Of a DNA stretch of 64,000 nucleotides, positions 1,997-40,205 are shown piece by piece. Source of the DNA: Bacilli bacterium. GTDB lineage: Bacteria; Bacillota_I; Bacilli_A; RFN20; CAG-826. Below the pieces are notes generated by a model, which had not been told where the DNA came from, made no database searches, and saw only the letters and a list, made by a program, of their open reading frames with translations. Position 1 is the first letter of the stretch. The number at the start of each line of letters is the position of its first letter. Location: assembly GCA_900767605.1 (NCBI GenBank), contig CAAFZT010000054.1:35-64034 (forward strand), written 5' to 3'. The position numbers and the translations under genes are program-made.

Positions 1997-2911
1997 CTAT
2001 TCGCAGCCCTCCGGAACCACGAAATTCAATGCCAACGGAAGCATTTTGATGTCGATTTTCGCTTCGCGGAATACCTCGCCGTCAATGGCATAGGCAACGG
2101 GCTTCGGCGATTCGATTTGCACGTGCGTGCACTTCTTATAAATCACCTGATCCACGAGCTTCGCATGGTTGATGTGCTCGCCTTTCCGGTAAATCTTCAT
2201 AAGGCTGGCGGCGGAGAAGCGCGACACCTTTTTAATCAAGCAAACATCAATGATGCCGTCATCGACCGCGCTCATTGGGGCGCATTTATAACCGCCGCCA
2301 TAGGTATGGCCGTTCGCCACGGCGATAAGGAGGCCTTTATCGTCGAAGATAACCTCATCGTCCACGGTGATTTTCATCATGGTCGACATCTTGAATAAAA
2401 GGGAAGAAACGGCGGCGAGGCTATAGGCCCCCTTCCCGCTCATTAAGGGCCATCGCTTGATGCGGTGCATTTTGAAGGTGACTTCCCCGTCAAATCCGAA
2501 ATTGAAGATATTGATAGACACCTTGTCATTGCATTGGAGCAAATCGATCTTCTTCGTCTTGCCGTGGATGAGTTTATCCAAATCCTTAAAGCATTCCGGG
2601 TCCTTGAAGTTTTTGATGAAGTCATTGCCAGACCCCGAGGGGAAGCAGGCCACTTCTGCATTTTCATAACAGTAGGCTCCATTGACGACGTCATGAAGGG
2701 AACCATCGCCTCCGATGGCATAGAAGCGATAGGTTTCTTCTTTGGGATGAGAGGCGAGGTAGTTTTTGACATACTCCCTCCCATCCCCTTTGCAGGTGGT
2801 TTTGTAGATTTCGTAATCGATAAGGCCGTCGTAGGGCTTTAAAAGGGTGCAAATCTCGCTATATCGGTCCCTTTTTCCCGCGTTTGGATTGACGACAAAG
2901 ATGTGTTTCAT
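1997..2911 (-). CDS. diacylglycerol kinase-family lipid kinase (YegS/BmrU/DgkB type)
   Basis: 304 aa. N-terminal MKHIFVVNPNAGKRD and GGDGSLHDVVNG motifs of the DAGK catalytic domain. The start lies 4 nt downstream of the preceding gene's stop. Confidence 0.85.
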   Translation of the reverse strand: MKHIFVVNPNAGKRDRYSEICTLLKPYDGLIDYEIYKTTCKGDGREYVKNYLASHPKEETYRFYAIGGDGSLHDVVNGAYCYENAEVACFPSGSGNDFIKNFKDPECFKDLDKLIHGKTKKIDLLQCNDKVSINIFNFGFDGEVTFKMHRIKRWPLMSGKGAYSLAAVSSLLFKMSTMMKITVDDEVIFDDKGLLIAVANGHTYGGGYKCAPMSAVDDGIIDVCLIKKVSRFSAASLMKIYRKGEHINHAKLVDQVIYKKCTHVQIESPKPVAYAIDGEVFREAKIDIKMLPLALNFVVPEGCE

Positions 2912-2915
2912 GAAT

Positions 2916-4679
2916 TCACTTTGCGTCCTTATGGAGAAAATCGATCTTTTGATCTTTGCTAATCTTCTCCTCTTCCTTCAAATCAAGGCCCAATGTTCCG
3001 CCTGGATTCATGAGATATTCGGGGTCGAAATGGTTTTTCAAGACTTTGAAGATTTCGAATTCCTTCGTGCCCAAGGATCCTTCTAACCATGGAGCGAAGG
3101 CTTTGCCGATGCCATGGTGATGGGACATCGCCGCACCCGATTTTTGAATCGCGTCCAAAATGCCATCCTGGTAATTCTTGTATTCGTTCAAATCCGTCAT
3201 GCGGGCAATGAAGATGAAATAGAGGTTCGCCCCTTGGGGATAAGCATGAGACATGTGGGTCATGCAGATCGTATTCGGCCTAGATTTGCAGAAGGCGCGG
3301 ACATCGCGATGGACTTGGGACATGTTGGACCAATTGACGCTGCACTCCAACGTATCGGTCATGATGCCAAAATCCTGCATGGAGTCTCTAAGATACGGGT
3401 CGTTGAACCTTCCCTTTTCCCAGGATTTGGTCACGAATCCAGTTAAGCTCATGCCTTTAAAGCGTTTGGCAATGCGGTGGATGCATTTGCTGACGTTTTT
3501 GGCAAAGCCCTTCTCTCCATCGGAGAAGCCTAAGAACAAACACATCTCGTTTTCTTTGAATCCTTTGAGTTTAAATAACTTCATCAAAGGCGTTTCGTCG
3601 ATGCCATAGAGGCGAAGCATGATGGAGGTCTCTTCTGGGTCGCTTAAACGGAAAACGGAAGAATATCCCCCTTCGCATTGCATCATTTCCCTTGCGGCCT
3701 TTTGGGCGGTTTCCCAGTCCTTGAACATGAAGGAATAGCGTTTGCGGTTTTCCGGCATATAACGGAACACCCGCAAAGTAACCTCGGTTAAGATGCCGAA
3801 CGTCCCTTCGCTGCCCATCATGATTTGATTGATGCTAGGACCCGTGGCTTCTTTCGGGGCATGCGTGGTCACGATTTTGCCAACGGGGGTGATGTATTCC
3901 TGGGACAATACGATGTCTTCGATTTTGCCATAATAGGTGGAATTCTGGCCGGCTCCACGGGTAACGACCCACCCACCGACGGAAGAATATTCAAAACTCT
4001 GGGGGAAGTGCCCACAGGTGTAGGGTCTTTGGGCATGGAACAAACTCACCGCGTTATTGAGGGCTTCTTCTAGCTTAGGGCCCGACATTCCCGTTTGAAC
4101 GGTGATCGTTTGATCCACTTCGTTGAAACGGATGACTTTGTTGAAGCGGAGGCGCATATCAAACGAGACGCCGCCCTTCATGCATTCGACCCCGCGAGTA
4201 ACCGAGGATCCGCCGCCATAGACATACATCGGAATCTTATGCTCGACGCAGTAAGCAACGATTTTTTCGATTTGTTCCTTGTCGTCTGGATAAATAACGA
4301 CATCGGGGATGTTTTCGATTTTCTTTTCGCGAAGGCGGAGCAAGTCATACATGGTCTTGCCATAGGCAACGCTTAGTCTTGAATAATCATCGTCTTTGAC
4401 GAATTCTTTTCCGACCACTTCTTGGAAGAAGGCAATATCTTCGTCTTTAACGATTTTCTTGGCGATATCGAATTGAACCTCGTCTAGGCCCAAGTCCTCG
4501 CTATATTCTTTGAAATCGTCGTTTTTTAAGTTGAAGGTTTCTTTCAACATGCCAAATAAGGTTTCTTTCGGCGTTTTGATAAAGTTGGGGTCGCCCCATT
4601 TGAAAATGGAACGATAGGATTTTGGAGGGATTTCCCCTTTGTACCATTTCGGCTCGAATTCTTTGTAGGGTTTTGACAT
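2916..4679 (-). CDS. FAD-linked oxidase, alkyldihydroxyacetonephosphate synthase (AGPS)-like
   Basis: 587 aa. PCMH-type FAD-binding region (VVIYPDDKEQIEKIVAYCVEHKIPMYVYGGGSSVTRG). C-terminal FAD-oxidase domain with SHHHGIG (codons at 3114-3122) instead of the GEHGxG of GlcD/D-LDH enzymes. N-terminal FKWGDPNF segment reminiscent of the AGPS N-terminus. Confidence 0.8.
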   Translation of the reverse strand: MSKPYKEFEPKWYKGEIPPKSYRSIFKWGDPNFIKTPKETLFGMLKETFNLKNDDFKEYSEDLGLDEVQFDIAKKIVKDEDIAFFQEVVGKEFVKDDDYSRLSVAYGKTMYDLLRLREKKIENIPDVVIYPDDKEQIEKIVAYCVEHKIPMYVYGGGSSVTRGVECMKGGVSFDMRLRFNKVIRFNEVDQTITVQTGMSGPKLEEALNNAVSLFHAQRPYTCGHFPQSFEYSSVGGWVVTRGAGQNSTYYGKIEDIVLSQEYITPVGKIVTTHAPKEATGPSINQIMMGSEGTFGILTEVTLRVFRYMPENRKRYSFMFKDWETAQKAAREMMQCEGGYSSVFRLSDPEETSIMLRLYGIDETPLMKLFKLKGFKENEMCLFLGFSDGEKGFAKNVSKCIHRIAKRFKGMSLTGFVTKSWEKGRFNDPYLRDSMQDFGIMTDTLECSVNWSNMSQVHRDVRAFCKSRPNTICMTHMSHAYPQGANLYFIFIARMTDLNEYKNYQDGILDAIQKSGAAMSHHHGIGKAFAPWLEGSLGTKEFEIFKVLKNHFDPEYLMNPGGTLGLDLKEEEKISKDQKIDFLHKDAK

Positions 4680-4694
4680 CTTGATGCTTCCTTT

Positions 4695-5039
4695 CTATTT
4701 CATCGATGTTGTTGTTATTAAATCAATGCCGGTATTCAGCACATTGGGAATCACGACGCTATGGATTTCTAGTCTTTCGGTCACGACCACTTTTTTGAGT
4801 TCTTGGAGGAGATCAGGAATCAACTTCTTATCGATTTCCCCCGCGGTGCGAACGCTGACGACGGGGAATCCTTCTACGCTTGTCCTAACCGTAGAGCAAA
4901 CGCTTCGTTTGGGATGGTGGAATTCGTTATAGGCGTATTCCTTGCCCCGAGGGCAGCGGTTACCTTCGCAGGTGTCGTTGATCTCGTCATATACAAGATG
5001 GCATCCATTGGGGCAAACGATGCAAACATATTCTTTCAT
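4695..5039 (-). CDS. DUF1667 Cys-rich small subunit of the anaerobic-type glycerol-3-phosphate dehydrogenase trio
   Basis: 114 aa. MKEYVCIVCPNGCHL ... CEGNRCPRGKEYA cysteine pattern typical of DUF1667. Conserved neighbourhood with the two flavoproteins upstream. Confidence 0.75.
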   Translation of the reverse strand: MKEYVCIVCPNGCHLVYDEINDTCEGNRCPRGKEYAYNEFHHPKRSVCSTVRTSVEGFPVVSVRTAGEIDKKLIPDLLQELKKVVVTERLEIHSVVIPNVLNTGIDLITTTSMK

Positions 5040-5043
5040 GTTC

Positions 5044-6273
5044 TTAATCCTCCAAGACGAAACGGATTTCTCCGGGCTTTTTCACCGTTAATAGGATCTT
5101 TTCCATTTCTGGTGGTCGAAGATGGGAATATTTCCTCTTTAACAGGATCTCTTCCCCTTGTTTTACGATTAAGGTCTTGTTTTGATATTCGTCCCGAGAC
5201 CGGAAATAGAAGGTCATCTTCTCCGTCCCCTTCTCAAAGTCGATATAAGAGGGAACGACATACCCGAAATGGGAATCGAATTGAACGGCTTTTAAGTCCC
5301 GTTTTCTTTCGCCTGTGAGTTTAGCGGCGTCCATGGCCGCGATTTCCCCGCTTTCTGAAACGTAGTCCGCGAGGTCATTGACATGCATCGCGTTGCCACA
5401 GGAATAAACCCCGTCGATCAGAGTTTCAAGCGTTTGGTCAACGTCCGGTCCTTTGGTGAAACGATTTAGAGGAACCCTAATCTCTTTGGCCAGCTCGTTT
5501 TCGGGAATTAAGCCCACCGAGAGAATCAAGGAATCGCAAGGAATGATTTCTTCGCTCCCTTTGATGGGGTTCATTCTTTCATCCACCTTGCAAACCTCCA
5601 CCGCTTCGAGGCGATCTTTCCCAAATACGCGGGTTACGGTATAAGACAAATGGAGGGGGATATCAAAATCCGTCAGGCATTGGGCAATGTTGCGGCTCAA
5701 TCCGCTTGGGGTGGGTTTCACTTCATAGACCCCTTTGACGTGAGCCCCTTCCAAGGTTAATCTCCTTGCCATGATGAGTCCAATGTCTCCTGACCCCAGA
5801 ATCACCACTTCTTTGCAGGGCATTTTACCGAGGACATTGATATAAAATTGTGCTTGCCCCGCGGTCATGACCCCCGTTGGATTCGTGCCATGAATCGCGA
5901 TTTGTTTCCCGGTCCTTTCGCGGCATCCCGTCGCTAAGATGAGCTTCTTTGTAGCGACTTGGTTCACGCCAGTTTCATTCACGAAGGTCACAATGATTCC
6001 GTCTTTGCTTGTGATGTTAGTCACGAACGTATTCTTCAGCACGGTGACGTTCGTCTTCTTTAGCTTCTCAATTTCTTTATTCGCGTATTCGGGGCCAGAA
6101 AGTTTTTCTTTAAACCGGGTTACACCGAACCCATCATGGATGCATTGCTTTAAAATGCCACCGAGTTTTCCTTCTCTTTCAATAAGCAAAACCTTCGCGG
6201 ACTGGCTTGCTTTCACGGCCGAAGCAAGTCCACCAGGTCCGCCCCCGATTACAATGATGTCATAATGTTCCAT
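5044..6273 (-). CDS. NAD(P)/FAD-dependent pyridine nucleotide-disulfide-family oxidoreductase (second subunit of the G3P dehydrogenase trio)
   Basis: 409 aa. MEHYDIIVIGGGPGGLASA dinucleotide fold and a second Rossmann motif VVILGSGDIGLIMA. Confidence 0.85.
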   Translation of the reverse strand: MEHYDIIVIGGGPGGLASAVKASQSAKVLLIEREGKLGGILKQCIHDGFGVTRFKEKLSGPEYANKEIEKLKKTNVTVLKNTFVTNITSKDGIIVTFVNETGVNQVATKKLILATGCRERTGKQIAIHGTNPTGVMTAGQAQFYINVLGKMPCKEVVILGSGDIGLIMARRLTLEGAHVKGVYEVKPTPSGLSRNIAQCLTDFDIPLHLSYTVTRVFGKDRLEAVEVCKVDERMNPIKGSEEIIPCDSLILSVGLIPENELAKEIRVPLNRFTKGPDVDQTLETLIDGVYSCGNAMHVNDLADYVSESGEIAAMDAAKLTGERKRDLKAVQFDSHFGYVVPSYIDFEKGTEKMTFYFRSRDEYQNKTLIVKQGEEILLKRKYSHLRPPEMEKILLTVKKPGEIRFVLED

Positions 6274-6276
6274 CGT

Positions 6277-7977
6277 TTACTCCTTGCTTCCTCGATAAAT
6301 CAAGGTGTCCTCCCCTTTTTTATGGACTTCTTCCAAGGGGATATGGTTTTCTTGGGCGAATAGTTCCGCGACCATGGGTTGGCAGAACCCTCCCTGGCAA
6401 CGCCCCATACCTGCGCGAACTCTTCTTTTAATGCCATCTAGCGTGGATGGGCGGATGATGGAATGAATCGCATCGAGAATTTCGCCTTCACTGATTTCTT
6501 CGCACCGACAGACGATATGGCCGTATTTTGGATTGGATTTGATGAGGCAATCCCGTTCTTCTAACGGTAATTTTCTTGTGGGTGTAATGCCTTTTCGGAC
6601 GGGATTGAAATGTTCGTTCTTCGAAGCGCGGAGGTCTTCCGCGACAAAATGAGCAATCGCTTCTCCAATGGCAGGGGCCGCGGTAAGTCCGGGGGATTGA
6701 ATGCCTGCTGCATGGTAGATGTTCTTCGTCCATTTTCCCTTGGAGACAATGAAGTCTTCTTCATAAGTGGGGGCTCTTACGCCCGAGAAATAGGTAATGG
6801 TGTCGCTCTTTTTAAGATGGGGCATTGTTTTGGAATGCTTTTCAAACAAACGGTCCACCACTTTTTTATCTGTCGTGAAGTCTTCTTTGTCTGGGATTTC
6901 AATCGCATTGGGTCCAACCAAGGTATTGTCATCCACGGTTGGAATAATACCCCCGCCTTTGGAATTGGACGTGTGGCTCTTCTTTTTGATGGAGAAGATT
7001 TGAATGCCGGAATTGGATAGTTCAGGGCGAACGCTTTTATCCATCAAGACATCGGTCCCTTTTCGCGGGTGGATCGAGAAGAATTTGTCGTGAGCAAGCT
7101 CGGCGATGCCATCGCTAAAAACGCCGGCAGCATTCACAACGGCCTTGGGATAAATGGTTCCGCGGTTCGTGATGACCTTCTCAATGACATTATCCTTCAC
7201 AACCATATCCTGGACATAGGTATGGAAGCTCACTTCCGCTCCATTAATGACCGCGGATTCGGCTAGGCCAATCGTGAAGTTATAAGGGCAGATGCTTCCC
7301 GCGTGAGGGAAATAGACACCGAATTTTACTTCTTCAGATAGGTTGGGCTCTAATTCCAATAATTTCTTCCGGCCCAATAGTTTCCAATCCGTAATATGAT
7401 TTTGTTTGCATTTAAAGGTGAAATAGGTGCGGATTAAGGGGCGCAAGGCATTGGATTTAAAGCAAACGGTCTGACCGTCTTCGCGGTATTCCACGTCGAT
7501 TTCCTTGCAGAGTTCTGGAATCATTTTTTTCGCGCGGACTAAATATTTTAGTTTCTCGCTTCCTTTGTGGAGGTCTACGCCCACATGGATGCAGCCGTCG
7601 TTTCTTGAGGAGGCGCCCAAAGCTAAATCTTCGCCCTTTTCCACCAAAAGGACGCTGAGGTTATATCTTTTTAATTCACGGGCAATCGCAGCCCCGACCA
7701 CTCCCCCGCCAATCACGAGTACGTCCACCCTTTTATTGTCTAGACTCGTGTCCACCAAGGACGGCTTCACAACATTTGGGGTATACCCTTTTAAGCGGAT
7801 GTTATTCACCACATGGGAATAGAGCTTCGTCTTGCTGGCTTTTAAGCCGATGCCAACGATTTGTTCCCATGAAGACAATTCGCCATCCAAAAAGAGAATG
7901 TCTTCCCTCTCAGAAGGAGAAATGGAGGAGAGGCCTTCCTCCTTCAGAAGTTTTTTGATTTTCTCGAGTCTCTTCAT
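6277..7977 (-). CDS. FAD-dependent glycerol-3-phosphate dehydrogenase-like oxidoreductase with a C-terminal BFD-like [2Fe-2S] domain
   Basis: 566 aa. VDVLVIGGGVVGAAIAREL FAD fold after a ~90-aa N-terminal extension. C-terminal CRCEEISEGEILDAI ... GMGRCQGGFC BFD-like motif. Confidence 0.85.
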   Translation of the reverse strand: MKRLEKIKKLLKEEGLSSISPSEREDILFLDGELSSWEQIVGIGLKASKTKLYSHVVNNIRLKGYTPNVVKPSLVDTSLDNKRVDVLVIGGGVVGAAIARELKRYNLSVLLVEKGEDLALGASSRNDGCIHVGVDLHKGSEKLKYLVRAKKMIPELCKEIDVEYREDGQTVCFKSNALRPLIRTYFTFKCKQNHITDWKLLGRKKLLELEPNLSEEVKFGVYFPHAGSICPYNFTIGLAESAVINGAEVSFHTYVQDMVVKDNVIEKVITNRGTIYPKAVVNAAGVFSDGIAELAHDKFFSIHPRKGTDVLMDKSVRPELSNSGIQIFSIKKKSHTSNSKGGGIIPTVDDNTLVGPNAIEIPDKEDFTTDKKVVDRLFEKHSKTMPHLKKSDTITYFSGVRAPTYEEDFIVSKGKWTKNIYHAAGIQSPGLTAAPAIGEAIAHFVAEDLRASKNEHFNPVRKGITPTRKLPLEERDCLIKSNPKYGHIVCRCEEISEGEILDAIHSIIRPSTLDGIKRRVRAGMGRCQGGFCQPMVAELFAQENHIPLEEVHKKGEDTLIYRGSKE

Positions 7978-7978
7978 T

Positions 7979-8530
7979 TTATAACCCCATCAACATTTTC
8001 TTGATGCCTTCAATTTCTTCTTTTGTCTTGTTGCCTAAGACGGTTTTGACGATGAGGCCTTCGATAATTACGAGGATGATATTGGCAATCTCGCCGGGGT
8101 TGGGACGGTCCTTGTAGACTTCTTTAACCCCTTCTGCGATTTTTTCCTTCCATTCATCCCAGAAAGACAGAATCTTGTTTTTGATGTCGTCATTTCGTGT
8201 GGATTCATTCAACAAATAAATATGGATTTTGGAATGGTTATAAAGCTCCGTGCTTTTATAGAAGACAACGTCAAAGAACCGTCCAATTTCAAGGTGGTCC
8301 TTATGCTTCAAAAGCCAGGCATCATAATCCCGTTCAAGTTCCTTGAAATGCATTTCGACGATGGCCGAAACAATTTCGTCCTTGGTTTTGAAATGGTAAT
8401 AAAGGCTTCCCGTGGACATATCTAAATAATTGGCGATGTCCCTTAGTGAAAAGTTATTTACCCCTTTCGAAGCGATAAGTTCTTCTGCAGAACGAATAAT
8501 TCTCTCTTTTGCGTTGCTAATTTCTTCCAT
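7979..8530 (-). CDS. TetR/AcrR family transcriptional regulator
   Basis: 183 aa. N-terminal HTH (FSLRDIANYLDMSTGSLYYHFKTKDEI). First gene of the operon, 1 nt from the next CDS. Confidence 0.9.
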   Translation of the reverse strand: MEEISNAKERIIRSAEELIASKGVNNFSLRDIANYLDMSTGSLYYHFKTKDEIVSAIVEMHFKELERDYDAWLLKHKDHLEIGRFFDVVFYKSTELYNHSKIHIYLLNESTRNDDIKNKILSFWDEWKEKIAEGVKEVYKDRPNPGEIANIILVIIEGLIVKTVLGNKTKEEIEGIKKMLMGL

Positions 8531-8546
8531 ATATATGTTACTGAGT

Positions 8547-8602
8547 CGGGCGACCGCCCGTGTAAGCGCTTACATTGTATAGAAGGAAAATAGAGAGTGC
8601 AA
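8547..8602 (-). promoter_or_regulatory. sigmaA-type promoter plus two adjacent perfect palindromes (candidate TetR operator)
   Basis: Minus-strand -35 TTGCAC (8597-8602), 17-nt spacer, -10 TACAAT (8574-8579). 14-bp palindrome TGTAAGCGCTTACA (8561-8574) abuts the -10. A second palindrome CGGGCGACCGCCCG lies at 8547-8560. The TetR ATG is at 8530. Confidence 0.5.
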
Positions 8603-8784: not shown

Positions 8785-9177
8785 TTATCCGTAAATTGCA
8801 AAATGTATCGTCATATCTGCCATGAGTTTACATGGTTTTAAAAAATTAGATGAAAAACCGCTCGTTTCGTCAAAGGAGGTGGTGAAAAAAGTGTAAGACC
8901 AGTAACCGTCCCCTACCAATTCCGGAACCACGTAATTCAACGAATCATAATCGAAATTAATAATATCATCGCTAGTTAGATCATAGCCGTGAGAATATTC
9001 AATATTAGTCCTGGCTAATTCATCGTTTTTAAAACGATAGCCGTCACAATTATCGTCTTTATCAAATACAAAGCTAATAAACGTATGCTGGATAAATGTC
9101 AAAGTGACGTTTTTTTCAATTTTAGCGCAAGAAAAAAGTGGAATTACTAGCAATAAACACAATAAAGCATTCTTCAT
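8785..9177 (-). CDS. small lipoprotein, unknown function
   Basis: ORF track 8785..9345. An internal ATG at 9177 gives MKNALLCLLLVIPLFSCAK with a lipobox-like LFSC. GAAGGGGA RBS upstream. Confidence 0.65.
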   Translation of the reverse strand: MKNALLCLLLVIPLFSCAKIEKNVTLTFIQHTFISFVFDKDDNCDGYRFKNDELARTNIEYSHGYDLTSDDIINFDYDSLNYVVPELVGDGYWSYTFFTTSFDETSGFSSNFLKPCKLMADMTIHFAIYG

Positions 9178-9382
9178 ATAAGTCCCCTTCAGATAAACTT
9201 TAACGTATTTCCTCCGCGGAAAATACAACCAGTTTCTTGAGTTCCACAATTGAGTTGCCGAAAAACACGGAAGAGTGATTTTGAAATTATCAAAAGGACA
9301 TCCAATGCCGACCCTTTCGCGCCTAAACCCCAAATTCGTTCTCAACGTCTTTTCTTAACGCCGAAAAATGTTCTCCCGCCAA

Positions 9383-9425: not shown

Positions 9426-9502
9426 TGGCGCGCCCGAGGCGATTCGAACGCCTGACCCCAACCTTCGGAGGGTTGTACTCTATCCAGCTGAGCTACGAGC
9501 GC
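9426..9502 (-). tRNA. tRNA-Arg (anticodon CCG), CCA encoded
   Basis: Manual cloverleaf: acceptor GCGCTCG/CGGGCGC, anticodon stem CAACC/GGTTG with loop CTCCGAA, T-arm AGGCG-TTCGAAT-CGCCT, 3' GCCA. Confidence 0.92.
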
Positions 9503-9507
9503 GTAAA

Positions 9508-9592
9508 TGGTGCACTGGATGGGAGTCGAACCCACACCGGTTGCCCGACTAGCTCCTGAGACTAGCGCGTATACCAATTCCGCCACCAGTGC
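9508..9592 (-). tRNA. tRNA-Leu (anticodon CAG), class II with long variable arm, CCA encoded
   Basis: Acceptor GCACTGG/CCAGTGC, anticodon stem CTAGT/GCTAG with loop CTCAGGA, long variable arm, T-arm GTGGG-TTCGACT-CCCAT, 3' ACCA. Confidence 0.9.
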
Positions 9593-15783: not shown

Positions 15784-16791
15784 CTATTTGGTTAGTAATC
15801 CGTGCTTAGCACGAATTTGGTCGAGGGATTTTTGAATTCTTTCGTCCGAATTGTCTCCGATACTAAGCAGCAAGGAAACATCATCGACGTAGGATTGTTT
15901 GGAAAAAACATGGGGGTCATAGGACCACACTTCTACTATTTCACCGCCAAAATCTTCGAAATCGCGTGGGCTGCAAAGACAATGAGAAGGAATCCTATTT
16001 GCTTCGGCTTTGGAAATAACAATGGCTCCGTCTCTAGAATTCGAAGCCAGTTCGGTCTCATCCGATAAAGCCCGAATTCCCCCAATGAGTTGATAGGGGA
16101 GTGATTGCTCGGGTTTTAGGAAAAGCATACGTTGAACGGGGGATTTCATTTTCGGATACCCCCTTCTTAGATACTCCTCCTTCGAAAATGCGGGAGAAAT
16201 CCATTTGTTCGCGCCTTCTTTTTTCTGGCGAATAAGCCCAAAGCCTAGAAGGTCATCGAAGGCTCGAGTGCACGTCGCCTTTGAAAGGGAAAGATCCTTG
16301 GCCACGCGGCTCAAATTAACGGGGCGCGAATCATCGTGATAATAAAGATACAAAAATACGGCTTGCGTACCAGGAACCATCTTTTTTGCAGATGAAAGAG
16401 AGGGGGCCTTGGTTCTTTCCTGAAACAAGCATCCCCAAAACGGGAAATAAACCTGTTGAGACGAGGAAATAAAAGGGACGTGACTTTCTACGAGATTTCT
16501 TCTTTGCAAAGCCGTGAGTCCATCCACGCATAAAGCACAGGGGCACGCACAGCTTTTTTGGAAAAAGCCATACTGTTTTTTTATTTCGGGCAAATGCCAA
16601 GCAAATAAAGGACGAAACAAAACACAAGAATTGCCGTTCCATTCCAATTGGCAAAACGCATAATTCGTCTGCAAAAAGCGGGGCAATGAAGCTACGTTTC
16701 GATATTCATTTATCACGATTGTTTCACCAAAAATAGACTTTAGATAGCCAATCGTTTCATTAAATGTGTCGTTAACATCGAATTGTTTCAT
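15784..16791 (-). CDS. hypothetical wHTH (MarR-like) DNA-binding protein with an N-terminal CxCxCxxC motif
   Basis: ORF track 15784..16845 (TTG start). ATG at 16791 preferred, but neither start has a clear SD. Central wHTH LSRVAKDLSLSKATCTRAFDDLLGFGLIRQKKEG. N-terminal SCACPCALC. No recognisable partner gene. Confidence 0.55.
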   Translation of the reverse strand: MKQFDVNDTFNETIGYLKSIFGETIVINEYRNVASLPRFLQTNYAFCQLEWNGNSCVLFRPLFAWHLPEIKKQYGFFQKSCACPCALCVDGLTALQRRNLVESHVPFISSSQQVYFPFWGCLFQERTKAPSLSSAKKMVPGTQAVFLYLYYHDDSRPVNLSRVAKDLSLSKATCTRAFDDLLGFGLIRQKKEGANKWISPAFSKEEYLRRGYPKMKSPVQRMLFLKPEQSLPYQLIGGIRALSDETELASNSRDGAIVISKAEANRIPSHCLCSPRDFEDFGGEIVEVWSYDPHVFSKQSYVDDVSLLLSIGDNSDERIQKSLDQIRAKHGLLTK

Positions 16792-16870
16792 TGTTACTTT
16801 AATAGTACCATCACTTATGAAATAAATAAAGTTTTTATGAAACAATAAGAATTTATGCCTTTTTTGGGGA

Positions 16871-16928: not shown

Positions 16929-17600
16929 TTATTCGTTATCGACTTCCTCCTCAATCGGAGCATCCGCTTGAATGGTTTTGGAAATCACAACCGTCGCGGT
17001 AGGGAGCACGACAAAGGTGGACAGGCCCATGAAGATGGCATAGACCAAAACAACGATGCCGAAGATGATGAGTTGCACATTTCCAGGGATAATGGTGTCT
17101 CCGCTATTGCCTTTAGCGATGCAAAGGGCGCCAAGAACAATGGAAACAACGGCCATAATCACACCGAAAATCACCGCTGGGAGAGCCATTTTCATAGCCT
17201 TTTGTCGGATGGCATTGATCACTAATAGCAAGGTATCAACGGCCAAAATGCATCCGACGACGATCATCACAAACGGAACGAATCCGATGAGGACACCCAT
17301 GAGATTGGCAGCTTCGCGATAAACGCAGAACCAAATGCCGGCGGCAAGGATGATTCCCCCAGACATGGCCGCGGTAGCAAAGGCTTCATGGCTAACCACG
17401 GCAGCAAAGATGCCCGCGACGATACCAATTGAACCAATCACAATGAGCGTCCAGCCCAAAACGAGGGAGATGGCATTGAGCGCATCACTTGGGTTCGACC
17501 CCTTTCCCATTTGGGCTCCGGCGACAATCACCAAAATACCGACAACCAACATAATGGCGGCTTGGATCCATTTATTCAAAGATTTGCGAACGAGTTTCAT
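16929..17600 (-). CDS. HdeD/DUF308-family integral membrane protein
   Basis: 223 aa, about 6 TM segments with repeated small-residue-rich helices (VVGILVIVAG, IVIGSIGIVAGIFAA) typical of DUF308. Confidence 0.65.
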   Translation of the reverse strand: MKLVRKSLNKWIQAAIMLVVGILVIVAGAQMGKGSNPSDALNAISLVLGWTLIVIGSIGIVAGIFAAVVSHEAFATAAMSGGIILAAGIWFCVYREAANLMGVLIGFVPFVMIVVGCILAVDTLLLVINAIRQKAMKMALPAVIFGVIMAVVSIVLGALCIAKGNSGDTIIPGNVQLIIFGIVVLVYAIFMGLSTFVVLPTATVVISKTIQADAPIEEEVDNE

Positions 17601-23515: not shown

Positions 23516-23544
23516 ATCATACTACGCCCTTTCTAACGCTTCAA
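23516..23544 (-). promoter_or_regulatory. candidate sigmaA promoter for the riboswitch-ribU unit
   Basis: Minus strand TTGAAG (23539-23544, overlapping the parB stop), 17 nt, TATGAT (23516-23521). Confidence 0.5.
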
Positions 23545-24383
23545 TTCTTAGAATGGGCTTTGGTTTGAAAGGGGATCCCTGCCTTCTTCAAGAAACTTTT
23601 CATCTCTTCTTTGGAAGAGAAGGTGAGGCTAACCGTATTCCCTTTTTTATAAGAAATAGAGGGGACGTGTAGGGGTTTATTCTCTTTTCCCTGTAATTTT
23701 TTGCAGTATTCCTCTGCCTTACGAACCGACCAATGATTCTCTTGGATTGCCTTAGCCGCCTCATCGATAAGAGGGGTAGGAAGAGAAACTAAAGCACGGG
23801 CTTGGCCATAACTAAGCTTTCCTAAAGCCACATCATAACGAACCGAGGCAGGGAGTTTTAATAAACGCATCGTATTGGTGATTTGGCAACGGCTTTGGTG
23901 GGATAAATTAGCAAGGGTCTGCTGACGATACCCAAATTTCTCGCTTAAAGCATGGCAAAGCAAGGCCATCTCTAAAATATTCGTTTCCCGTTGGTCACGG
24001 GCATCCGCAAGAAGCATCAATAACGTCTCTTCGTCCCCGCAGTCTACAATCGCGCAGGGAAGGGACAAAATCCCCGCCGCTTTGGCGCCAAAGAAACGTT
24101 TTCTTCCTAGGATCACTTCATATCGCCCTTCTCCTTTTTTGCGGACGACCAGAGGGTTATAAAAGCCTTTGGATTTCAAGCCTTCGGCAAAATAACGAAT
24201 CGTTTTTTCCGGAAGAGGGACTTCCTGGATGAAGGAAGTATCGTCGATAAGTAAGGTGGAAATGAGTTTAGCCGGTGCACTTTGATATTCCTTTTCCATC
24301 TCGGCGATAACGTCGCTTTGAGAAAATTTCTCAATCAAAGAGGAAAGCGAATCCGATAGCAGTTTGGGCTTATCGCGTTTCAT
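23541..24383 (-). CDS. parB: ParB/Spo0J-family partition protein (divergent CTP-binding motif)
   Basis: ORF track 23541..24512 (TTG). The ATG at 24383 gives MKRDKPKLL and overlaps parA by 14 nt. ParB N-domain and HTH (QQTLANLSHQSRCQITNTMRLLKL). GRKRFFGAKAAG in place of GERRxRAAKLAG. Confidence 0.85.
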   Translation of the reverse strand: MKRDKPKLLSDSLSSLIEKFSQSDVIAEMEKEYQSAPAKLISTLLIDDTSFIQEVPLPEKTIRYFAEGLKSKGFYNPLVVRKKGEGRYEVILGRKRFFGAKAAGILSLPCAIVDCGDEETLLMLLADARDQRETNILEMALLCHALSEKFGYRQQTLANLSHQSRCQITNTMRLLKLPASVRYDVALGKLSYGQARALVSLPTPLIDEAAKAIQENHWSVRKAEEYCKKLQGKENKPLHVPSISYKKGNTVSLTFSSKEEMKSFLKKAGIPFQTKAHSKN

Positions 24384-25143
24384 GGTCCAAAATCTCCTTG
24401 GCCAAGGAGAAATAGGCGTAACTCCCTTGGGAAGTCGGGCGGAAGATAGTGACGGGCTGCTGACGGGCTTGCGATTCCGAAATGCTTTGGTTCCGGGGAA
24501 CGGAGGTGGCAAAGGTATTTTCTTTGAATAACCGTCTCACCTCTTGTTGGATTTCGGTCCCTAATTGGGTCCTCGCGTCATACATCGTCAGGAGGAAACC
24601 CTCGATTTTTAATCGGGGGTTCAACGTATTTTGGACGTTAGAAATGGAAGAAAGGATCGCGGCGACCGCCTCCATGGCAAAATATTCGCATTGAACGGGA
24701 ATCAAAACCGAATCCGCCGCGGTTAAGGCGTTAAGGTTCAATAAACCCAAAGAAGGCGGGCAATCCAAAATCATGAAATCATAATGAGATTCGACGGTTT
24801 TAAGGCATCGAGCCAACAAATCAAAGGGCTTCTCTTGTGGATGGGTATACATCGAGGCTTCCAAAGAAGCCAAGCGAAGATTCGACGGAATCACGCTTAA
24901 GCCTTCAAAGGGAGTTTTTTGGATGCAACTTTCCATTTCCATTTGGCCCGTCAAAGCTTCGTAAATCGTTTCTTTTGCCAAAGTAATATCGATGCCAAGG
25001 CCGCGCCCGGCGTTGCCCTGAGGGTCCATATCCACCAAAAGAACACGCTGCCCAAAATGGGACAAGGCGCTGGAAAGGTTGATGGCTGTGGTGGTTTTGC
25101 CCACCCCGCCCTTTTGGTTGGCGATGGCGATAATCTTAGGCAT
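24370..25143 (-). CDS. parA: ParA/Soj partition ATPase
   Basis: 257 aa. Deviant Walker A ANQKGGVGKTTTA, plus DMDPQGNA and ILDCPPSLG. Confidence 0.93.
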   Translation of the reverse strand: MPKIIAIANQKGGVGKTTTAINLSSALSHFGQRVLLVDMDPQGNAGRGLGIDITLAKETIYEALTGQMEMESCIQKTPFEGLSVIPSNLRLASLEASMYTHPQEKPFDLLARCLKTVESHYDFMILDCPPSLGLLNLNALTAADSVLIPVQCEYFAMEAVAAILSSISNVQNTLNPRLKIEGFLLTMYDARTQLGTEIQQEVRRLFKENTFATSVPRNQSISESQARQQPVTIFRPTSQGSYAYFSLAKEILDHETR

Positions 25144-25178
25144 GACGAGGATATTTTACTCCTTTTTGGTGAATTCTC

Positions 25179-25877
25179 TTAGAGAGGCTTTTTTTGGATA
25201 TCCGCCCAACTACGGGGGTAGCAGGGTTTGGTTGGATGAATTTTTTCGAAGAAATAATTGATGCGCTTTTCTCCACTTGGCATCACGAGTTCTTCTTTCT
25301 TTCTTAGGTGCAGGGCGAGGCGTTGTTCGGTGCCAAGAGCTTCGTGAAGTTCTTCTTCTCCACGAGGTCCTTTCATAGCAATGACAGTTCCATTGACTTT
25401 AACTAACGGGGCGCCTACTTCGAGAAGAATGCGTGTAGCGGCAAACCCGCGAGCCGTGACGATGTCGAAGCTTTCCCGCAACGTCTTTGCCTCTTCTACC
25501 CGTCCGACATAGAAACGGACATTGTTGAGTTCTAATTCTTTTTTGAGCTCTTCTAGGAAGAGGAATTTCTTCTTGGTCGCATCCATTAAGGTGACGTGGC
25601 AAGAAGGGAAGGCAGTAGCAAAAACCATGCCTGGAAAACCTGCTCCCGACCCCATGTCCGCCACGGATTTGCCGGCAAAGGAAGTTGTGAAGGCGGGGGT
25701 CAAGGAATCGAGGAAGTGCTTTTCGATGACTTCGGACTCTTCCGTAATCGAAGTGAGATTCATCTTTTCGTTCCATTCCGCGAGTAATTCCGCGTAGCGG
25801 TGGAATTTGGCTTCGAGGTCCGGATTTAGTTCCAAACCATGCTCGGAAGCGAATGCGAATAATTCGGCGTAAGTCAT
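25179..25877 (-). CDS. rsmG: 16S rRNA (guanine527-N7)-methyltransferase
   Basis: 232 aa. GidB-family blocks (WNEKMNLTSI, DMGSGAGFPG, ARGFA). Confidence 0.92.
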   Translation of the reverse strand: MTYAELFAFASEHGLELNPDLEAKFHRYAELLAEWNEKMNLTSITEESEVIEKHFLDSLTPAFTTSFAGKSVADMGSGAGFPGMVFATAFPSCHVTLMDATKKKFLFLEELKKELELNNVRFYVGRVEEAKTLRESFDIVTARGFAATRILLEVGAPLVKVNGTVIAMKGPRGEEELHEALGTEQRLALHLRKKEELVMPSGEKRINYFFEKIHPTKPCYPRSWADIQKKPL

Positions 25878-32876: not shown

Positions 32877-34994
32877 ATGAAGAAAACCAAACTCCTCACA
32901 TGTTTAGTTAGCCTCACGGCCCTCGCCACTTTGGCGGGCTGCAACGAGACCAGCTACAAAGAGGGTGTCGCGATTAGCTTCACCGATGCGAATGGCAAAG
33001 TCACGAACTATACAACCAAAGAATTGTTTGAGGACTATCAAGCCAGCAGCAGCACCGCAAGCAGCGATTTTGACAAAATCAAAGAAATTCTAATCCGTAA
33101 GTACTATCAGGATCCGAGCCGTGCCGGCGACCTTAGCCTTTTGAAGTCCTCGGCCCAAACCAAAGTTGACGGTATCAAGAACCAAGCGGAGACCAATGCC
33201 AAAAATAACGGCACGTCCTACGCAACCGAACTCGAAGCCTTGTTGGACGGCGAAAGTGTCGACAACGTGGAAGAGCTTTATCAAAAGAAACTCTACGAAG
33301 TCGAATCCGACAAATTCAACACCGACTATCAAAGCGACGCCAATTTGGTAAAGATGCGTGATGGCAAAGATTCCGATGGCAACAAATTCTTCCCCGAAGA
33401 CGAAAACTTCGGCAAAGGATCGGAAGGTTATTTGAAGACCCGCATGCCGTACAACGTTTCGCACATTTTGCTCGAAGCTTCCAGCGCGAGCGAATCCGAT
33501 GCCACAAGCACCGCGGTCAGCGAAACCGAAGCCAAAACCTTTGGCGATGTCATCTTAATGATGGCGGGCGCCAGCACCGTTGACAGCGATAACGGCAAGA
33601 AATCCGTCGCCGACGGACGCATGACCTTTGGCGAATTGGCGAAAACCTATTCCAAAGATACCGGATCCGCCGAAAAATACGGCAACCTCGGCATCATGGA
33701 TACTTCCACTTCCTTCGTCCAAGGATTCCAATATGGCGTTTATGCTTACGACCTCTTCTTCAATAAGAGCACGCATAAGGATGCAGATGCCAACAAATCG
33801 GCCATCATGTATTCCGAAGACGCCAAATTCCGCAACGAAAAAGGCGAGGAAACCCTTCTTTCCGAAGCCACGGCCGCTGATGGCGTTTTAGGCGAAATCG
33901 GCACGATTCCCTTCGGTGCCGCCGTCGCTTTGGCCAATGACCAAGTCAACAAGAACTTCCCGTCGCAGCAATATCAAGTCAATGATAATGATTCGGCCTA
34001 CATGCCGCGCAACGTCATTTGGAACAAATACTTCAACTCGCACCGCATTGCCGTGATCACCCCGAACCGCATCGCCTATAACGATGTCGTCGAAGCGGGA
34101 TTCACCCAAGCCAGCGAAGAAGCTGCTGCCACCAAATATGCGGAAGCGGAAGGTTATTACAAGAAGACCGCCGAAGACGCTGCTTGGAAAGGCACGTTAG
34201 ATAACGATTACGCGAAGCTCCCTGGTTTCCAAAACAACACCAAGGACATCCTTGATGTGAAAGATGCCAGTGGCAACGCCGAAAACGTTCTCACCAACGA
34301 AAAAGGACAAATCATCCTTGCCGTTCGTGGCGATTCCGGAACCAAAGGCATCCACTTCATCGTCGTGGAACGCAGCCCGCTCATCGCTTACGCTGGATTC
34401 GACAATGGCAAATACGTCGAAACCACCGAAACGAGCACCAGCAAAGATATCACCTCGCTTTCTGAATACTACACCTTCGAAAACCCGGCCGAATCCAAGA
34501 GCTATCCGCAATATACGGTTGGCGATACCAAAGTGGACAAGACAACCCTCATCACCATGGGCCTTGATACCACCAAGGAAAACTACAAGACCAACATCGA
34601 AGATTTGAAGAGCAAAGTCAAAGCCGCCTATTCCAGCGACCTCGACACCTACGAAGTCCAATACTTGGTCAAAGAAACCAAGGCGCAATTCAATGTGGAG
34701 AACGCCACGGTCAAAACGATCATGGATTCCGTTTATAACTATTCGAAGCAACAAAGAAAGAAGAACGCGGAAGACGCAGAAAAGTCCATCGACGAAGCCT
34801 GGGCCAAATACGCGGAATTCCTCCTTCGCGAAGATGCTTCCCGCGAAACCCGCGCCGATGGTTCTCAAAAGCTCATCTCCGAAGTCGCGGCCTTGACCTA
34901 CAACACCGCCGACGCCCGTGATGGAAAGAACATCTGGGGCATCGTTACCAGCGGCACCCACGCCGGAAAACCGGGCGCCTGCTATAAGAAGTAA
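32877..34994 (+). CDS. large surface lipoprotein with a split parvulin (PrsA/PpiC-like) domain
   Basis: 705 aa. Lipobox LATLAGC (Cys22). Parvulin signatures VSHILL, FGELAKTYSKDTGSAEKYGNLG and KGIHFIVVE, separated by an insertion of about 190 aa (domain about 33450-34370). GGAGG RBS. Confidence 0.8.
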   Translation: MKKTKLLTCLVSLTALATLAGCNETSYKEGVAISFTDANGKVTNYTTKELFEDYQASSSTASSDFDKIKEILIRKYYQDPSRAGDLSLLKSSAQTKVDGIKNQAETNAKNNGTSYATELEALLDGESVDNVEELYQKKLYEVESDKFNTDYQSDANLVKMRDGKDSDGNKFFPEDENFGKGSEGYLKTRMPYNVSHILLEASSASESDATSTAVSETEAKTFGDVILMMAGASTVDSDNGKKSVADGRMTFGELAKTYSKDTGSAEKYGNLGIMDTSTSFVQGFQYGVYAYDLFFNKSTHKDADANKSAIMYSEDAKFRNEKGEETLLSEATAADGVLGEIGTIPFGAAVALANDQVNKNFPSQQYQVNDNDSAYMPRNVIWNKYFNSHRIAVITPNRIAYNDVVEAGFTQASEEAAATKYAEAEGYYKKTAEDAAWKGTLDNDYAKLPGFQNNTKDILDVKDASGNAENVLTNEKGQIILAVRGDSGTKGIHFIVVERSPLIAYAGFDNGKYVETTETSTSKDITSLSEYYTFENPAESKSYPQYTVGDTKVDKTTLITMGLDTTKENYKTNIEDLKSKVKAAYSSDLDTYEVQYLVKETKAQFNVENATVKTIMDSVYNYSKQQRKKNAEDAEKSIDEAWAKYAEFLLREDASRETRADGSQKLISEVAALTYNTADARDGKNIWGIVTSGTHAGKPGACYKK

Positions 34995-35006: not shown

Positions 35007-36680
35007 ATGAAGAAAATCAAAATCTTCTCCGCAGCCTTCCTTGCTGCGATGACCCTCGGCCTCGCTTCTTGCGGCGACGTCGAAATGAGTCTCGGAAAAG
35101 CCGATCAAAACGAGACTATCCTCAAAGATACCGATGTCTTTGGCAATAAACTCCTTGAGATTTATGACAAAGTCGTCGTCAGTGGGGATACCAATAGCGA
35201 AAAGATCCTCAATAACGTTCTTTATCTCTATGCCAAATCCTATTTCGGTGACTTCTTTGCGGATTATACCTGCGATGCTACCGGAACTTGGAAATTAAAC
35301 GACGGCGTCAAACCGGCGGCCTTCTTCCGTGAAGGCGTCAGTGATGAAGTCGCCACGACCAAAGCCTTGGATTTCCACAATTCCATCGTGACTTCCATCA
35401 TGAAGTCGTTCTGGTCCGTAGTCAGCAATAGTTCCTATCAAAAGAACCAACGCTTCCACGAAGAACTCTTCGTCAAAGCCCAACAAGCCGAACTTTATAA
35501 GCTCGATAGCAATGTCACCTTCAAAAATGACGGCGCCATCGACGGCTCCAAGACCTACAAGGACGTCATGGGCTACTTCCACGTCCAAAACGATCAATTC
35601 TTCTCTTATTATAAGGATTATATTGAACGCTCCTTGTTGCCGAACGCTTATCGCAAGGCTTTAGTCGAGCAATACCTCATCGACAACAACTATGGCGCCC
35701 TCGGACGTTCCTATGCCCGTAAGGTCCAATACGTTGCTTTGCCGAACCTCGACAAATATGAATCCTCCACCCGTTCTCTTGTTCGTGCCTATTGCAAGCA
35801 CGTCTTGGAAAAGAAGGATAGCGACCTTGGCGAATTTGCTGGCGTTTATAAAGACCTTCACTTCTTGAATCGTCTTTATTCCGGCTATTTCACCGCTGAA
35901 GAACAAACCTCTTACGCGACGGTCTTAAATAGTATCTACAGCGAAGCCGGCTTCACCGCCGTTGCCGCTTATAACGTTACCAACGCGGATGGCGACTTGC
36001 TCTATACGACCGAAGCCACTTATCGCGAAACGACCTATGGCCAACTCGTCCTCGATTTCAAGGATCTCAGCGATTCTCGCTGGGAAACCGGCTCGACCAC
36101 GGACTTCACGAATTCCGGCGCTTACACCAAAGTCACCGGCCTTGAAATGAAGACTCGTGACATCGTTGCTTCCAGCAAAGTCACCGAAGGATGGTACACC
36201 TCTTCCGGTTTGAGCGACCTCCCCTCTTCCATGAAGACCCGTTTATTCAAGACCCAAGTGGCCAACGAAGTCGATAACCCGGCCTATGCCGACAAAGACA
36301 GCACCGTAACGATCAAGGACACCTTCACTTGGCGCGTTCAGGGCGAATATTACCTCCGTCCCGAAACGATTCAAACCGGCGAAGCCTATCCGTACGCGAT
36401 GTATGATGACTCCGGCAAAACCTGGTACATCGTCCGCGTGGACGAAGCCGTCAAGTCTCCGAAGCTCCAAAGCAAAGAGAACAGCGACACCAGCTATGAA
36501 AACCGCACCTCTGGTGAAACGATGAACCAAATCATTTGGGACATCGCGGACCTCATTGGCGATGGCGATTCCTACAAAAAGGCTGCTCGTCAGTACTTCG
36601 TGGAAAAAATGTCGATCTCCTATCACGACGATAACGTCTATTCCTATTTCGAAAAGACGTTCCCGGACCTCTTCGACTAA
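35007..36680 (+). CDS. surface lipoprotein, degenerate PrsA-like paralogue
   Basis: 557 aa. Lipobox LGLASC (Cys22). Weak parvulin-like remnants (VQYVAL, GWYTSSGLSDLP, TWYIVRVDE). Starts 12 nt after the preceding gene. Confidence 0.72.
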   Translation: MKKIKIFSAAFLAAMTLGLASCGDVEMSLGKADQNETILKDTDVFGNKLLEIYDKVVVSGDTNSEKILNNVLYLYAKSYFGDFFADYTCDATGTWKLNDGVKPAAFFREGVSDEVATTKALDFHNSIVTSIMKSFWSVVSNSSYQKNQRFHEELFVKAQQAELYKLDSNVTFKNDGAIDGSKTYKDVMGYFHVQNDQFFSYYKDYIERSLLPNAYRKALVEQYLIDNNYGALGRSYARKVQYVALPNLDKYESSTRSLVRAYCKHVLEKKDSDLGEFAGVYKDLHFLNRLYSGYFTAEEQTSYATVLNSIYSEAGFTAVAAYNVTNADGDLLYTTEATYRETTYGQLVLDFKDLSDSRWETGSTTDFTNSGAYTKVTGLEMKTRDIVASSKVTEGWYTSSGLSDLPSSMKTRLFKTQVANEVDNPAYADKDSTVTIKDTFTWRVQGEYYLRPETIQTGEAYPYAMYDDSGKTWYIVRVDEAVKSPKLQSKENSDTSYENRTSGETMNQIIWDIADLIGDGDSYKKAARQYFVEKMSISYHDDNVYSYFEKTFPDLFD

Positions 36681-40203: not shown

Positions 40204-40205
40204 CG

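Follow-up and report, generated by a model that had tools for sequence, protein, structure and literature searches.

In a 64-kb stretch of DNA from a Bacilli bacterium (contig CAAFZT010000054.1), which in its full length is referred to as the window and whose numbering is used for all coordinates, we have analysed an operon that combines a flavoenzyme related to alkyl-dihydroxyacetone phosphate synthase (AGPS) with a three-subunit glycerol-3-phosphate (G3P) dehydrogenase and a lipid kinase. The operon contains six co-directional genes on the minus strand. It starts with a TetR-family regulator of 183 residues (7979-8530; TetR_N, E=1.4e-13 in Pfam), followed by a GlpA/GlpTk-type dehydrogenase of 566 residues that binds flavin adenine dinucleotide (FAD) and carries a C-terminal BFD [2Fe-2S] domain (6277-7977; DAO, E=9e-64; Fer2_BFD, E=3e-13), an NAD(P)/FAD pyridine-nucleotide-disulfide oxidoreductase of 409 residues termed the 'NOX' subunit (5044-6273; Pyr_redox_2, E=3e-30), a DUF1667 protein of 114 residues termed the 'MOX' subunit (4695-5039; DUF1667, E=4e-26), the AGPS-family flavoenzyme of 587 residues (2916-4679; FAD_binding_4 and FAD-oxidase_C) and a soluble lipid kinase of the DagK/YegS/BmrU family of 304 residues (1997-2911; DAGK_cat and YegS_C). 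The gaps between successive genes, recomputed from the coordinates of the open reading frames (ORFs), amount to 1, 3, 4, 15 and 4 nt, and Shine-Dalgarno-like motifs are found ahead of five of the six genes, the exception being the TetR gene. Coordinates, strand, spacing and all six domain assignments agree with a preliminary description of the locus, which had interpreted the operon as a de novo module for the synthesis of alkyl-dihydroxyacetone phosphate (alkyl-DHAP). The same gene order is encountered on the source contig in an ENA metagenome (ERZ27229841, k119_172485). For comparison, we have collected 80 related loci (one genome per species) whose flavoenzymes are 50-83% identical to the protein of the window, in which features were counted by tblastn. 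The nearest of these loci belongs to a metagenome-assembled genome (MAG) of the Anaeroplasmataceae, with a flavoenzyme that is 83% identical.

Upstream of the TetR gene, a putative sigma-70-like promoter on the minus strand (8574-8602) was read by eye, with a -35 box TTGCAC at 8597-8602 separated by a 17-nt spacer from a -10 box TACAAT at 8574-8579. A generic promoter scan called no promoter near 8.6 kb in the region preceding the TetR gene, as the -35 box fits at three of six positions. The -10 box is overlapped by the perfect 14-nt palindrome TGTAAGCGCTTACA (8561-8574), a candidate TetR operator with an arm structure of 7+7, and a second G+C-rich palindrome, CGGGCGGTCGCCCG (8547-8560, arms 6+2+6), is located between promoter and TetR start. 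In the nearest relative for which upstream sequence is available (L004), a copy of the first palindrome with two mismatches is found in the corresponding position and a palindrome of the form GTCGG-N4-CCGAC directly precedes the TetR start, with a similar one being present in another locus (L012). With its TetR_N domain and a palindrome overlapping the promoter, the locus displays the predicted hallmarks of a TetR repressor with an operator at its own promoter, in support of the TetR gating proposed in the preliminary description, and the TetR gene is presumably autoregulatory. The NCBIfam matches of the TetR protein are weak and all below cut-off. At its other end, the operon is closed by a terminator-like hairpin on the minus strand (1944-1980), 16 nt past the stop codon of the kinase gene, whose arms are complementary at 11 of 11 positions. 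With a folding energy of -26.5 kcal/mol (z = -4.2), it was not equalled in stability by any of 200 shuffled sequences, and the previously noted stem-loop is thus real; the U-tract behind it is short and weak (UUU). Internal terminator-like matches are not enriched (14 compared to 9.8±3.6 in shuffled sequences).

The 587-residue flavoenzyme resembles AGPS over nearly its entire length. In phmmer searches of PDB sequences, it matches the enzyme from Dictyostelium (2uuu) with E=1.2e-69 and 238 bits across residues 31-560 and its guinea-pig counterpart with E=4e-54, whereas D-lactate dehydrogenase (D-LDH) is matched in the FAD domain only (E=2e-21, 79 bits), and all NCBIfam matches to GlcD are far under cut-off. 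An AlphaFold2 model (pLDDT 87.7, pTM 0.88) leads to a similar picture: AGPS chains occupy ranks 1-37 of a Foldseek search of the predicted structure (E=4e-37, TM 0.79-0.86, about 580 aligned columns) and the first D-LDH follows at rank 38 (E=5e-26), while the AGPS-specific N-terminal part is retained besides the core of FAD_binding_4 and FAD-oxidase_C domains. Mutagenesis of the Dictyostelium enzyme has identified Arg 352, Arg 447 and Tyr 508 as important residues. In the phmmer alignment these correspond to Arg 344, Arg 431 and Tyr 487 of the window protein, and His 520-His 522 map to the HHH loop. The three residues and the SHHHG loop at positions 519-523 are invariant in an alignment of 35 family sequences (A1) and in a second alignment combining a Dictyostelium-type AGPS (P0237) with representatives of other bacterial groups (A2). 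Judged by sequence and predicted fold, the protein is a member of the AGPS family and not of the GlcD/D-LDH type, and an identity as glycolate oxidase or D-LDH was rejected in light of the far stronger, full-length matches to AGPS. The AGPS-like assignment of the preliminary description was confirmed in this way, and the clustering with glycolate or D-lactate enzymes, which had been named as an observation that would speak against it, was not found. 

The placement within the family, which is derived from bit scores, pairwise identities and average-linkage groups, indicates that the window-type flavoenzyme is the most divergent AGPS branch among those compared. The window protein shares 31% identity (254 BLAST bits) with Dictyostelium-type AGPS, compared to 39% (413 bits) for a bacterial form fused to an acyltransferase, and GlpD-fused and other bacterial AGPS-like forms reach 340-350 bits against 2uuu in phmmer, where the Dictyostelium-type and guinea-pig enzymes score 331 bits against each other. 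The family is large: of the candidates that were scored from a 90%-identity database, 5828 proteins reach E<=1e-10, and a 50%-identity representative library contains 873 clusters at E<=1e-30.

The three genes preceding the flavoenzyme follow the order DAO-family dehydrogenase, pyridine-nucleotide-disulfide oxidoreductase and DUF1667 protein. This order is known from the GlpTk clade of FAD-dependent G3P dehydrogenases of Thermococcus kodakarensis, Thermotoga maritima, Clostridium perfringens and anaerobic protists, where the GlpTk gene is always trailed by genes of a pyridine-nucleotide-disulfide oxidoreductase/NADH oxidase and of a DUF1667 protein and where the three products from T. kodakarensis form a soluble complex in vitro. 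By gene order and domain content, the trio of the window is a G3PDH-NOX-DUF1667 complex of the GlpTk type, which specifies the anaerobic G3P dehydrogenase proposed earlier. Its catalytic subunit, although of the same DAO family, differs from the GlpTk system in an N-terminal extension of 83 residues, for which we found no match, and in scores that stay under the NCBIfam cut-offs of GlpA and GlpO (188 versus 460 bits and 144 versus 553 bits). Its best NCBIfam match is to a type 2 G3P oxidase, at 188 bits compared to a cut-off of 460, and its best PDB match is Mycoplasma GlpO (4x9m), covering residues 84-440. While the GlpTk trio elsewhere accompanies glpK and glpF, the window and 50 of the 80 related loci add an AGPS-like gene behind it. 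In two loci (L005 and L031), true glpK genes adjoin the same trio, an arrangement that speaks for G3P as one of its substrates.

The kinase at the end of the operon scores 139.7 bits for TIGR00147, above the cut-off of 118.65, which assigns it to the YegS/Rv2252/BmrU lipid kinase family, and it matches BmrU- and DgkB-type structures in the PDB with 75 bits. It shares the two-domain architecture of DgkB, YegS and BmrU but does not reach the equivalog cut-offs of either DgkB (NF009874, 105.6 versus 385 bits) or YegS (116 versus 284 bits), and the former result does not support an identity as housekeeping DgkB at the equivalog level. A kinase gene is directly adjacent to the AGPS-like gene in 48 of the 80 loci, but it encodes a DagK-family protein in only two of them, to which the window adds one more, and an FGGY kinase in the other 46. 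The DagK gene of the window thus holds the operon position that is taken by an FGGY kinase in most relatives and is not, as had been assumed, the typical partner. The FGGY protein is nearest to xylulokinase and autoinducer-2 (AI-2) kinase, with 240 bits to XylB compared to 132 bits to GlpK, both below the NCBIfam cut-offs. An identity as glycerol kinase was ruled out, as its XylB score exceeds its GlpK score and as it coexists with a true GlpK in two loci, one containing glpF and glpK (877 bits, L005) and the other glpK (850 bits, L031) beside the same cluster. Its coexistence with a true GlpK implies a second substrate for the FGGY kinase that is different from glycerol. In the window itself, tblastn searches with GlpK and FGGY probes matched nothing in the entire 64 kb, in agreement with the reported absence of glpK from the operon. 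The view that the genes do not serve plain glycerol catabolism holds for the window, but in two related loci bona fide glpF and glpK (L005) or glpK (L031) adjoin the same cluster.

The 80 loci span Bacillota, Treponema/Spirochaetota, Thermotogae, Caldisericota, Anaerolineae, Desulfobacterota and Myxococcota. Carriers that have been brought into culture include Paludicola sp. MB14-C6, Faecalicatena contorta and Clostridium sediminicola. A dehydrogenase of the GlpA or GlpD type is encoded within 7 kb of the AGPS-like gene in 63 of them, and NOX and DUF1667 subunits are each found near this gene in 50, as part of a G3PDH-NOX-DUF1667 triplet that is followed by the AGPS-like gene. In some proteins, the two parts are contained in a single polypeptide: AGPS-like::GlpD fusions, with DAO and DAO_C domains, make up at least 26 clusters at 90% identity. 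Gene fusions usually join consecutive steps. The coupling of the AGPS-like gene to a G3P-type dehydrogenase is thus strong and extends broadly across phyla, with both parts being fused in some proteins. AGPS-like proteins are also fused to NUDIX, HAD phosphatase and GNAT or PlsC-type acyltransferase domains (P0129, P0138, P0323, P0367, P0156, P0306), of which the PlsC-type fusions (P0156 and P0306) are found elsewhere in the family. The sequence group of the window flavoenzyme includes the NUDIX fusion (P0129), and a separate NUDIX gene is located near the cluster in Paludicola (L001).

Other neighbours are less frequent. A TetR regulator is found near the AGPS-like gene in 17 of the loci and a FadR-type regulator, which scores 209.5 bits and thus above the NCBIfam equivalog cut-off of 189, opens the cluster in 14, whereas GntR/UTRA-type regulators are present in some. 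Acyl-CoA synthetase genes are close by in seven loci, in four of them just upstream of the dehydrogenase gene (L052, L053, L056 and L060), DegV/FakB follows directly downstream in two, and a true GlpK is nearby in two. One fusion gene (L085) is part of a co-directional array with genes encoding FadB-like and FadE-like proteins, a thioesterase, an SDR protein, an aldehyde dehydrogenase, an epimerase/NAD_binding_4 protein and a patatin lipase. The conserved core of the related loci contains neither a transporter, including those for sugars or polyols, nor a candidate for an alkyl-DHAP reductase. A FAR-type probe (NAD_binding_4) matched none of the 80 loci, and a probe for PlsC/GNPAT-type acyltransferases matched a single one (L007), weakly and at a distance of about 7 kb upstream. 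In the window, the ORFs that were scanned with Pfam encode neither FAR nor GNPAT domains. The FadR-type regulators, the acyl-CoA synthetase and DegV/FakB genes, the beta-oxidation and lipase neighbours of the fusion gene and the lack of a transporter in the core together lend the module a lipid flavour.

In two loci of the Polyangiales/Myxococcales (L047 and L050), the AGPS-like gene is of the window type (57% identity), with a score of 240 bits against Dictyostelium AGPS, and has no G3P-dehydrogenase gene nearby. It is preceded by genes of acyl-CoA-dehydrogenase-like proteins, confirmed by Pfam in L047, and followed by an SDR gene, and L047 also contains a distant DagK homologue. In contigs of the Thermodesulfobacteriota type, a metallo-beta-lactamase/ODP-family gene is located directly before the AGPS::GlpD fusion gene (L084, 6293-6988; L087, 6270-7004; L088, 6191-6907), whose start it overlaps in L087. 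We considered it as a phospholipase-D-type feeder, but as these pairs are placed amid chemotaxis and two-component genes no conclusion was drawn.

How could these proteins act together? AGPS uses oxidised FAD in a reaction without net redox change, in which a tyrosine abstracts a proton, a flavin N5 adduct is formed, the group at C1 is expelled and a second nucleophile attacks. As a tentative reading, which we hold to be possible rather than probable, we propose that the autoregulated TetR operon constitutes a self-contained module that acts on the group at C1 of a glycerol-phosphate backbone, presumably in the cleavage or salvage of glycerol ethers. In such a module, the DagK-family kinase would phosphorylate a 1-O-radyl-sn-glycerol, such as a monoalkyl- or monoacyl-glycerol originating from host, diet or membrane turnover, to a 1-radyl-glycerol-3-phosphate, a step that in most other bacteria would be assumed by the non-GlpK FGGY kinase. 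The GlpTk-type dehydrogenase would oxidise this compound at C2 to 1-radyl-DHAP, and the electrons would exit through the BFD cluster, NOX and DUF1667. In the AGPS-family flavoenzyme, with oxidised FAD as electrophile, proton transfer to the tyrosine and formation of the N5 adduct would lead to the expulsion of the C1 substituent in exchange for another nucleophile. In the direction that we favour, alkyl-DHAP and water or a fatty acid would be converted to DHAP or acyl-DHAP and a fatty alcohol, which would release the glycerol moiety from ether lipids independently of oxygen. Beyond family membership, we infer all functional aspects, including the substrates, the use of 1-substituted G3P by the dehydrogenase, the ligand of the TetR protein and the direction in which the AGPS-type step proceeds. 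Doubtful in our view is the specific version of an oxygen-independent 'etherase', in which phosphorylation to 1-alkyl-G3P and oxidation to alkyl-DHAP by a GlpA/GlpD-type dehydrogenase would be followed by release of fatty alcohol and DHAP from the N5 adduct of the AGPS-family enzyme.

Several features of the loci favour cleavage or salvage over synthesis. The module is self-contained, the kinase would come first as in uptake pathways, and the electron-output partners of the dehydrogenases imply a net oxidation as required for a catabolic route. The lack of FAR and the near absence of GNPAT-type genes in the 80 loci point in the same direction, as do the glpF and glpK or beta-oxidation, aldehyde-dehydrogenase and lipase genes that sometimes adjoin. 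Other considerations weigh against a cleaving module. We know of no AGPS-family enzyme that cleaves its substrate physiologically, only the synthetic direction having precedent, nor are we aware of an FGGY kinase with a lipid substrate, and the exchange of an ester for an ether is the thermodynamically favoured direction. In 27 of the 80 loci, no kinase adjoins the AGPS-like gene although the sequence extends far enough to either side. The presence of glpF and glpK beside the same trio in L005 suggests plain use of G3P, so that the use of 1-radyl-G3P has to be assumed in addition. The acyl-CoA synthetase and DegV genes in the neighbourhood are equally compatible with synthesis since synthesis would release a fatty acid, and the DagK protein of the window could be a housekeeping lipid kinase that is merely co-transcribed.

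The de novo synthesis of ether lipids envisaged in the preliminary description, where the trio would convert G3P to DHAP, an unlinked acyltransferase would generate acyl-DHAP, the AGPS homologue would replace the acyl group by a fatty alcohol to yield alkyl-DHAP and the kinase would phosphorylate an alkyl- or acyl-glycerol, appears unlikely, even if its gene identities have proven right. It would draw on the sole demonstrated activity of the AGPS family in a protein with intact catalytic residues, the fatty acid that is freed in the exchange could be recycled by nearby acyl-CoA synthetase and DegV proteins, PlsC-type acyltransferases are fused to AGPS in other branches, and Desulfobacterota and Thermotogae, which carry homologues, include known producers of alkylglycerols. 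However, the pathway logic is probably wrong in two places. DagK is not the usual kinase, and DHAP, as a central metabolite, needs no dedicated supply by a G3P dehydrogenase. The FAR and GNPAT-type partners of AGPS are missing from the loci except for the one weak and distant match and from the scanned ORFs of the window. A candidate for the reductase that would process alkyl-DHAP is equally missing from the conserved core, and synthesis would leave both the AGPS::GlpD fusions and the non-GlpK FGGY kinase unexplained. Moreover, the alkylglycerols of D. alkenivorans and T. maritima have already been ascribed to Ger, and it is the acyltransferase-fused branch, rather than the window type, that is nearer to eukaryotic AGPS (39% and 413 bits compared to 31% and 254 bits).

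The prevalence of an FGGY carbohydrate kinase nearest to xylulokinase and AI-2 kinase as main partner raises the question of whether the substrate could instead be soluble, with kinase, dehydrogenase and AGPS-like enzyme processing a small 1-O-substituted glycerol or a ketose or polyol phosphate, whose C1 group would be removed or exchanged to pass DHAP to glycolysis. The glpF and glpK genes adjoining in L005, glpK in L031 and the GntR/UTRA-type regulators of some loci would be in line with this idea, which we nevertheless regard as quite improbable, since the conserved core contains no sugar or polyol transporter, the regulators include TetR and FadR, the latter above its equivalog cut-off, and the neighbours encode acyl-CoA synthetase, DegV, acyl-CoA dehydrogenases and patatin. 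The kinase of the window is itself a member of a lipid-kinase family, and its flavoenzyme has kept the AGPS fold in its entirety, together with the AGPS-specific N-terminal part by which a C16 channel is gated in AGPS. The least probable of the explanations considered is an ordinary catabolism of glycerol and G3P, with the AGPS-like protein being a conventional redox enzyme of the VAO family, for example a 2-hydroxy acid dehydrogenase or an electron-transfer partner of the G3P dehydrogenase, and DagK an unrelated housekeeping protein. The trio is of a known glycerol-catabolic type, and D-LDH and GlcD have the same fold as the AGPS family, with sub-threshold NCBIfam matches to GlcD, but the full-length matches to AGPS are far stronger, and the residues specific to its non-redox catalysis, which proceeds with oxidised flavin and without net redox change, are invariant. 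It would also leave the persistent adjacency of a kinase other than GlpK unaccounted for.

A comparison to characterized systems places the cleaving module that we favour into context. The alkyl-DHAP synthases (AGPS/ADPS, EC 2.5.1.26) of Dictyostelium, mammals and Myxococcus xanthus (MXAN_1676) share their three-part fold, Pfam domains and catalytic residues with the window protein. The enzymes of M. xanthus, which is about 42% identical to its human counterpart, and of eukaryotes are tied to FAR and GNPAT, whereas the window type is tied to G3P dehydrogenase and kinase. It is also present in Myxococcota (L047), though in another context than the G3P-dehydrogenase module. PlsA/PlsR and Ger, the known anaerobic routes to bacterial ether lipids, are not related to the proteins of the operon and act by reduction of an ester bond that is already in place. 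The window ORFs that were scanned with Pfam contain none of their activase or dehydratase-type domains. In animals, the phosphorylation of 1-O-alkylglycerol, which corresponds to the step proposed for DagK and FGGY kinases, is catalysed by ACAD10, a member of an unrelated protein family that was identified as alkylglycerol kinase in mammals only recently.

The cleavage of ethers has an animal precedent in AGMO, which breaks the 1-O-alkyl bond for the same purpose as proposed here but belongs to an unrelated protein family. AGMO requires O2, whereas the hypothetical route of the window would proceed without oxygen. AGMO depends on tetrahydrobiopterin and has been described as the only known enzyme that cleaves the ether bond of alkylglycerols. 

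In the actinobacterium Actinocatenispora sera (L086), the AGPS-like gene diverges from a TetR and a GlpD gene, which follow each other on the opposite strand (GlpD<-TetR<- ->AGPS-like). The same layout is presumably found in M. tuberculosis, where we take Rv2249c to be glpD1, Rv2250c a TetR regulator, Rv2250A/Rv2251 the flavoprotein and Rv2252 DagK. This cluster would thus combine the same four functions as the window (GlpD, TetR, AGPS-like flavoprotein and DagK-family kinase), though with a GlpD-type dehydrogenase in a divergent arrangement instead of the three-subunit type. Rv2251 and Rv2252 have been described as a flavoprotein and a diacylglycerol kinase, respectively.

An AGPS-type route had been called unexpected in an anaerobe. 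The window confirms the anaerobic lifestyle of this gut-type bacterium by encoding PFL, PFL activase, a Crp/Fnr regulator, NrdD and NrdG, but AGPS homologues are abundant in anaerobes, as apparent from the 873 clusters noted above. Their presence is unsurprising, since homologues from bacteria including anaerobic MAGs have already been reported as possible markers of 'ether-lipid potential' in metagenome studies, a use with functional support for the M. xanthus enzyme alone. The linkage and fusion to a dehydrogenase across phyla, the usual kinase, the fatty-acid-responsive regulators and the absence of canonical FAR and GNPAT partners turn this vague annotation into a concrete four-protein hypothesis. 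We found no description of the AGPS-like/G3P-dehydrogenase/kinase module, its fusions or the exchange of FGGY for DagK in the literature searched, although such absence is no proof. If the module were to make ethers, it would define a second anaerobic route that is independent of PlsA and Ger and does not need GNPAT. If it were to break them, it would be the first case of oxygen-independent ether-lipid cleavage, the first outside AGMO and the first in bacteria and anaerobes, and it would reveal a new role of the AGPS family. Cleavage would also bear on the turnover of host and dietary ether (plasmanyl) lipids in the gut, on the fate of alkylglycerols in anoxic sediments and on the reading of alkylglycerol biomarkers, and the actinobacterial layout, together with its presumed equivalent in M. 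tuberculosis, adds medical interest.

Outside the operon, the window contains several other features. Between the terminator hairpin and the next gene (473-1828), which encodes a protein with Schlafen AlbA_2, HATPase_c_4 and winged HTH domains, four direct repeats of the form (A/T)TGGTGTCA, in minus-strand reading, follow each other at 1867-1910 with an exact period of 11 nt (4.0 copies, 81% matches in TRF) and may serve as iterated operator for this gene. On the other side, an ORF of 186 residues without Pfam match (8785-9345, minus) lies between the operon promoter and a pair of adjacent tRNA genes, tRNA-Arg(CCG) and tRNA-Leu(CAG) (9426-9592, minus), located just upstream of the operon. This ORF contains an internal lipoprotein-like signal, MKNALLCLLLVIPLFSCAK, which places its true start probably within the reading frame. 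Further ORFs without Pfam match are found at 15784-16845, 16929-17600 and 55951-56580 on the minus strand (353, 223 and 209 residues) and, with a threshold of E<=1e-5, as an adjacent pair at 32877-34994 and 35007-36680 on the plus strand (705 and 557 residues). A cluster of rsmG/gidB, parA and parB (about 23541-25877, minus), adjoined by an ECF S-component and an ABC transporter, indicates that the window may be located near the chromosomal origin. Enzymes of the families GH3, GH95 and GH20 suggest a forager of host glycans. Finally, the stretch at 39028-43589 is related to lipids: besides a GT4 glycosyltransferase, it encodes an LPG_synthase_TM protein at 40206-41741 and, at 42618-43589, a fatty-acid-binding protein of the DegV/FakB type, which suggests that the organism uses exogenous fatty acids.

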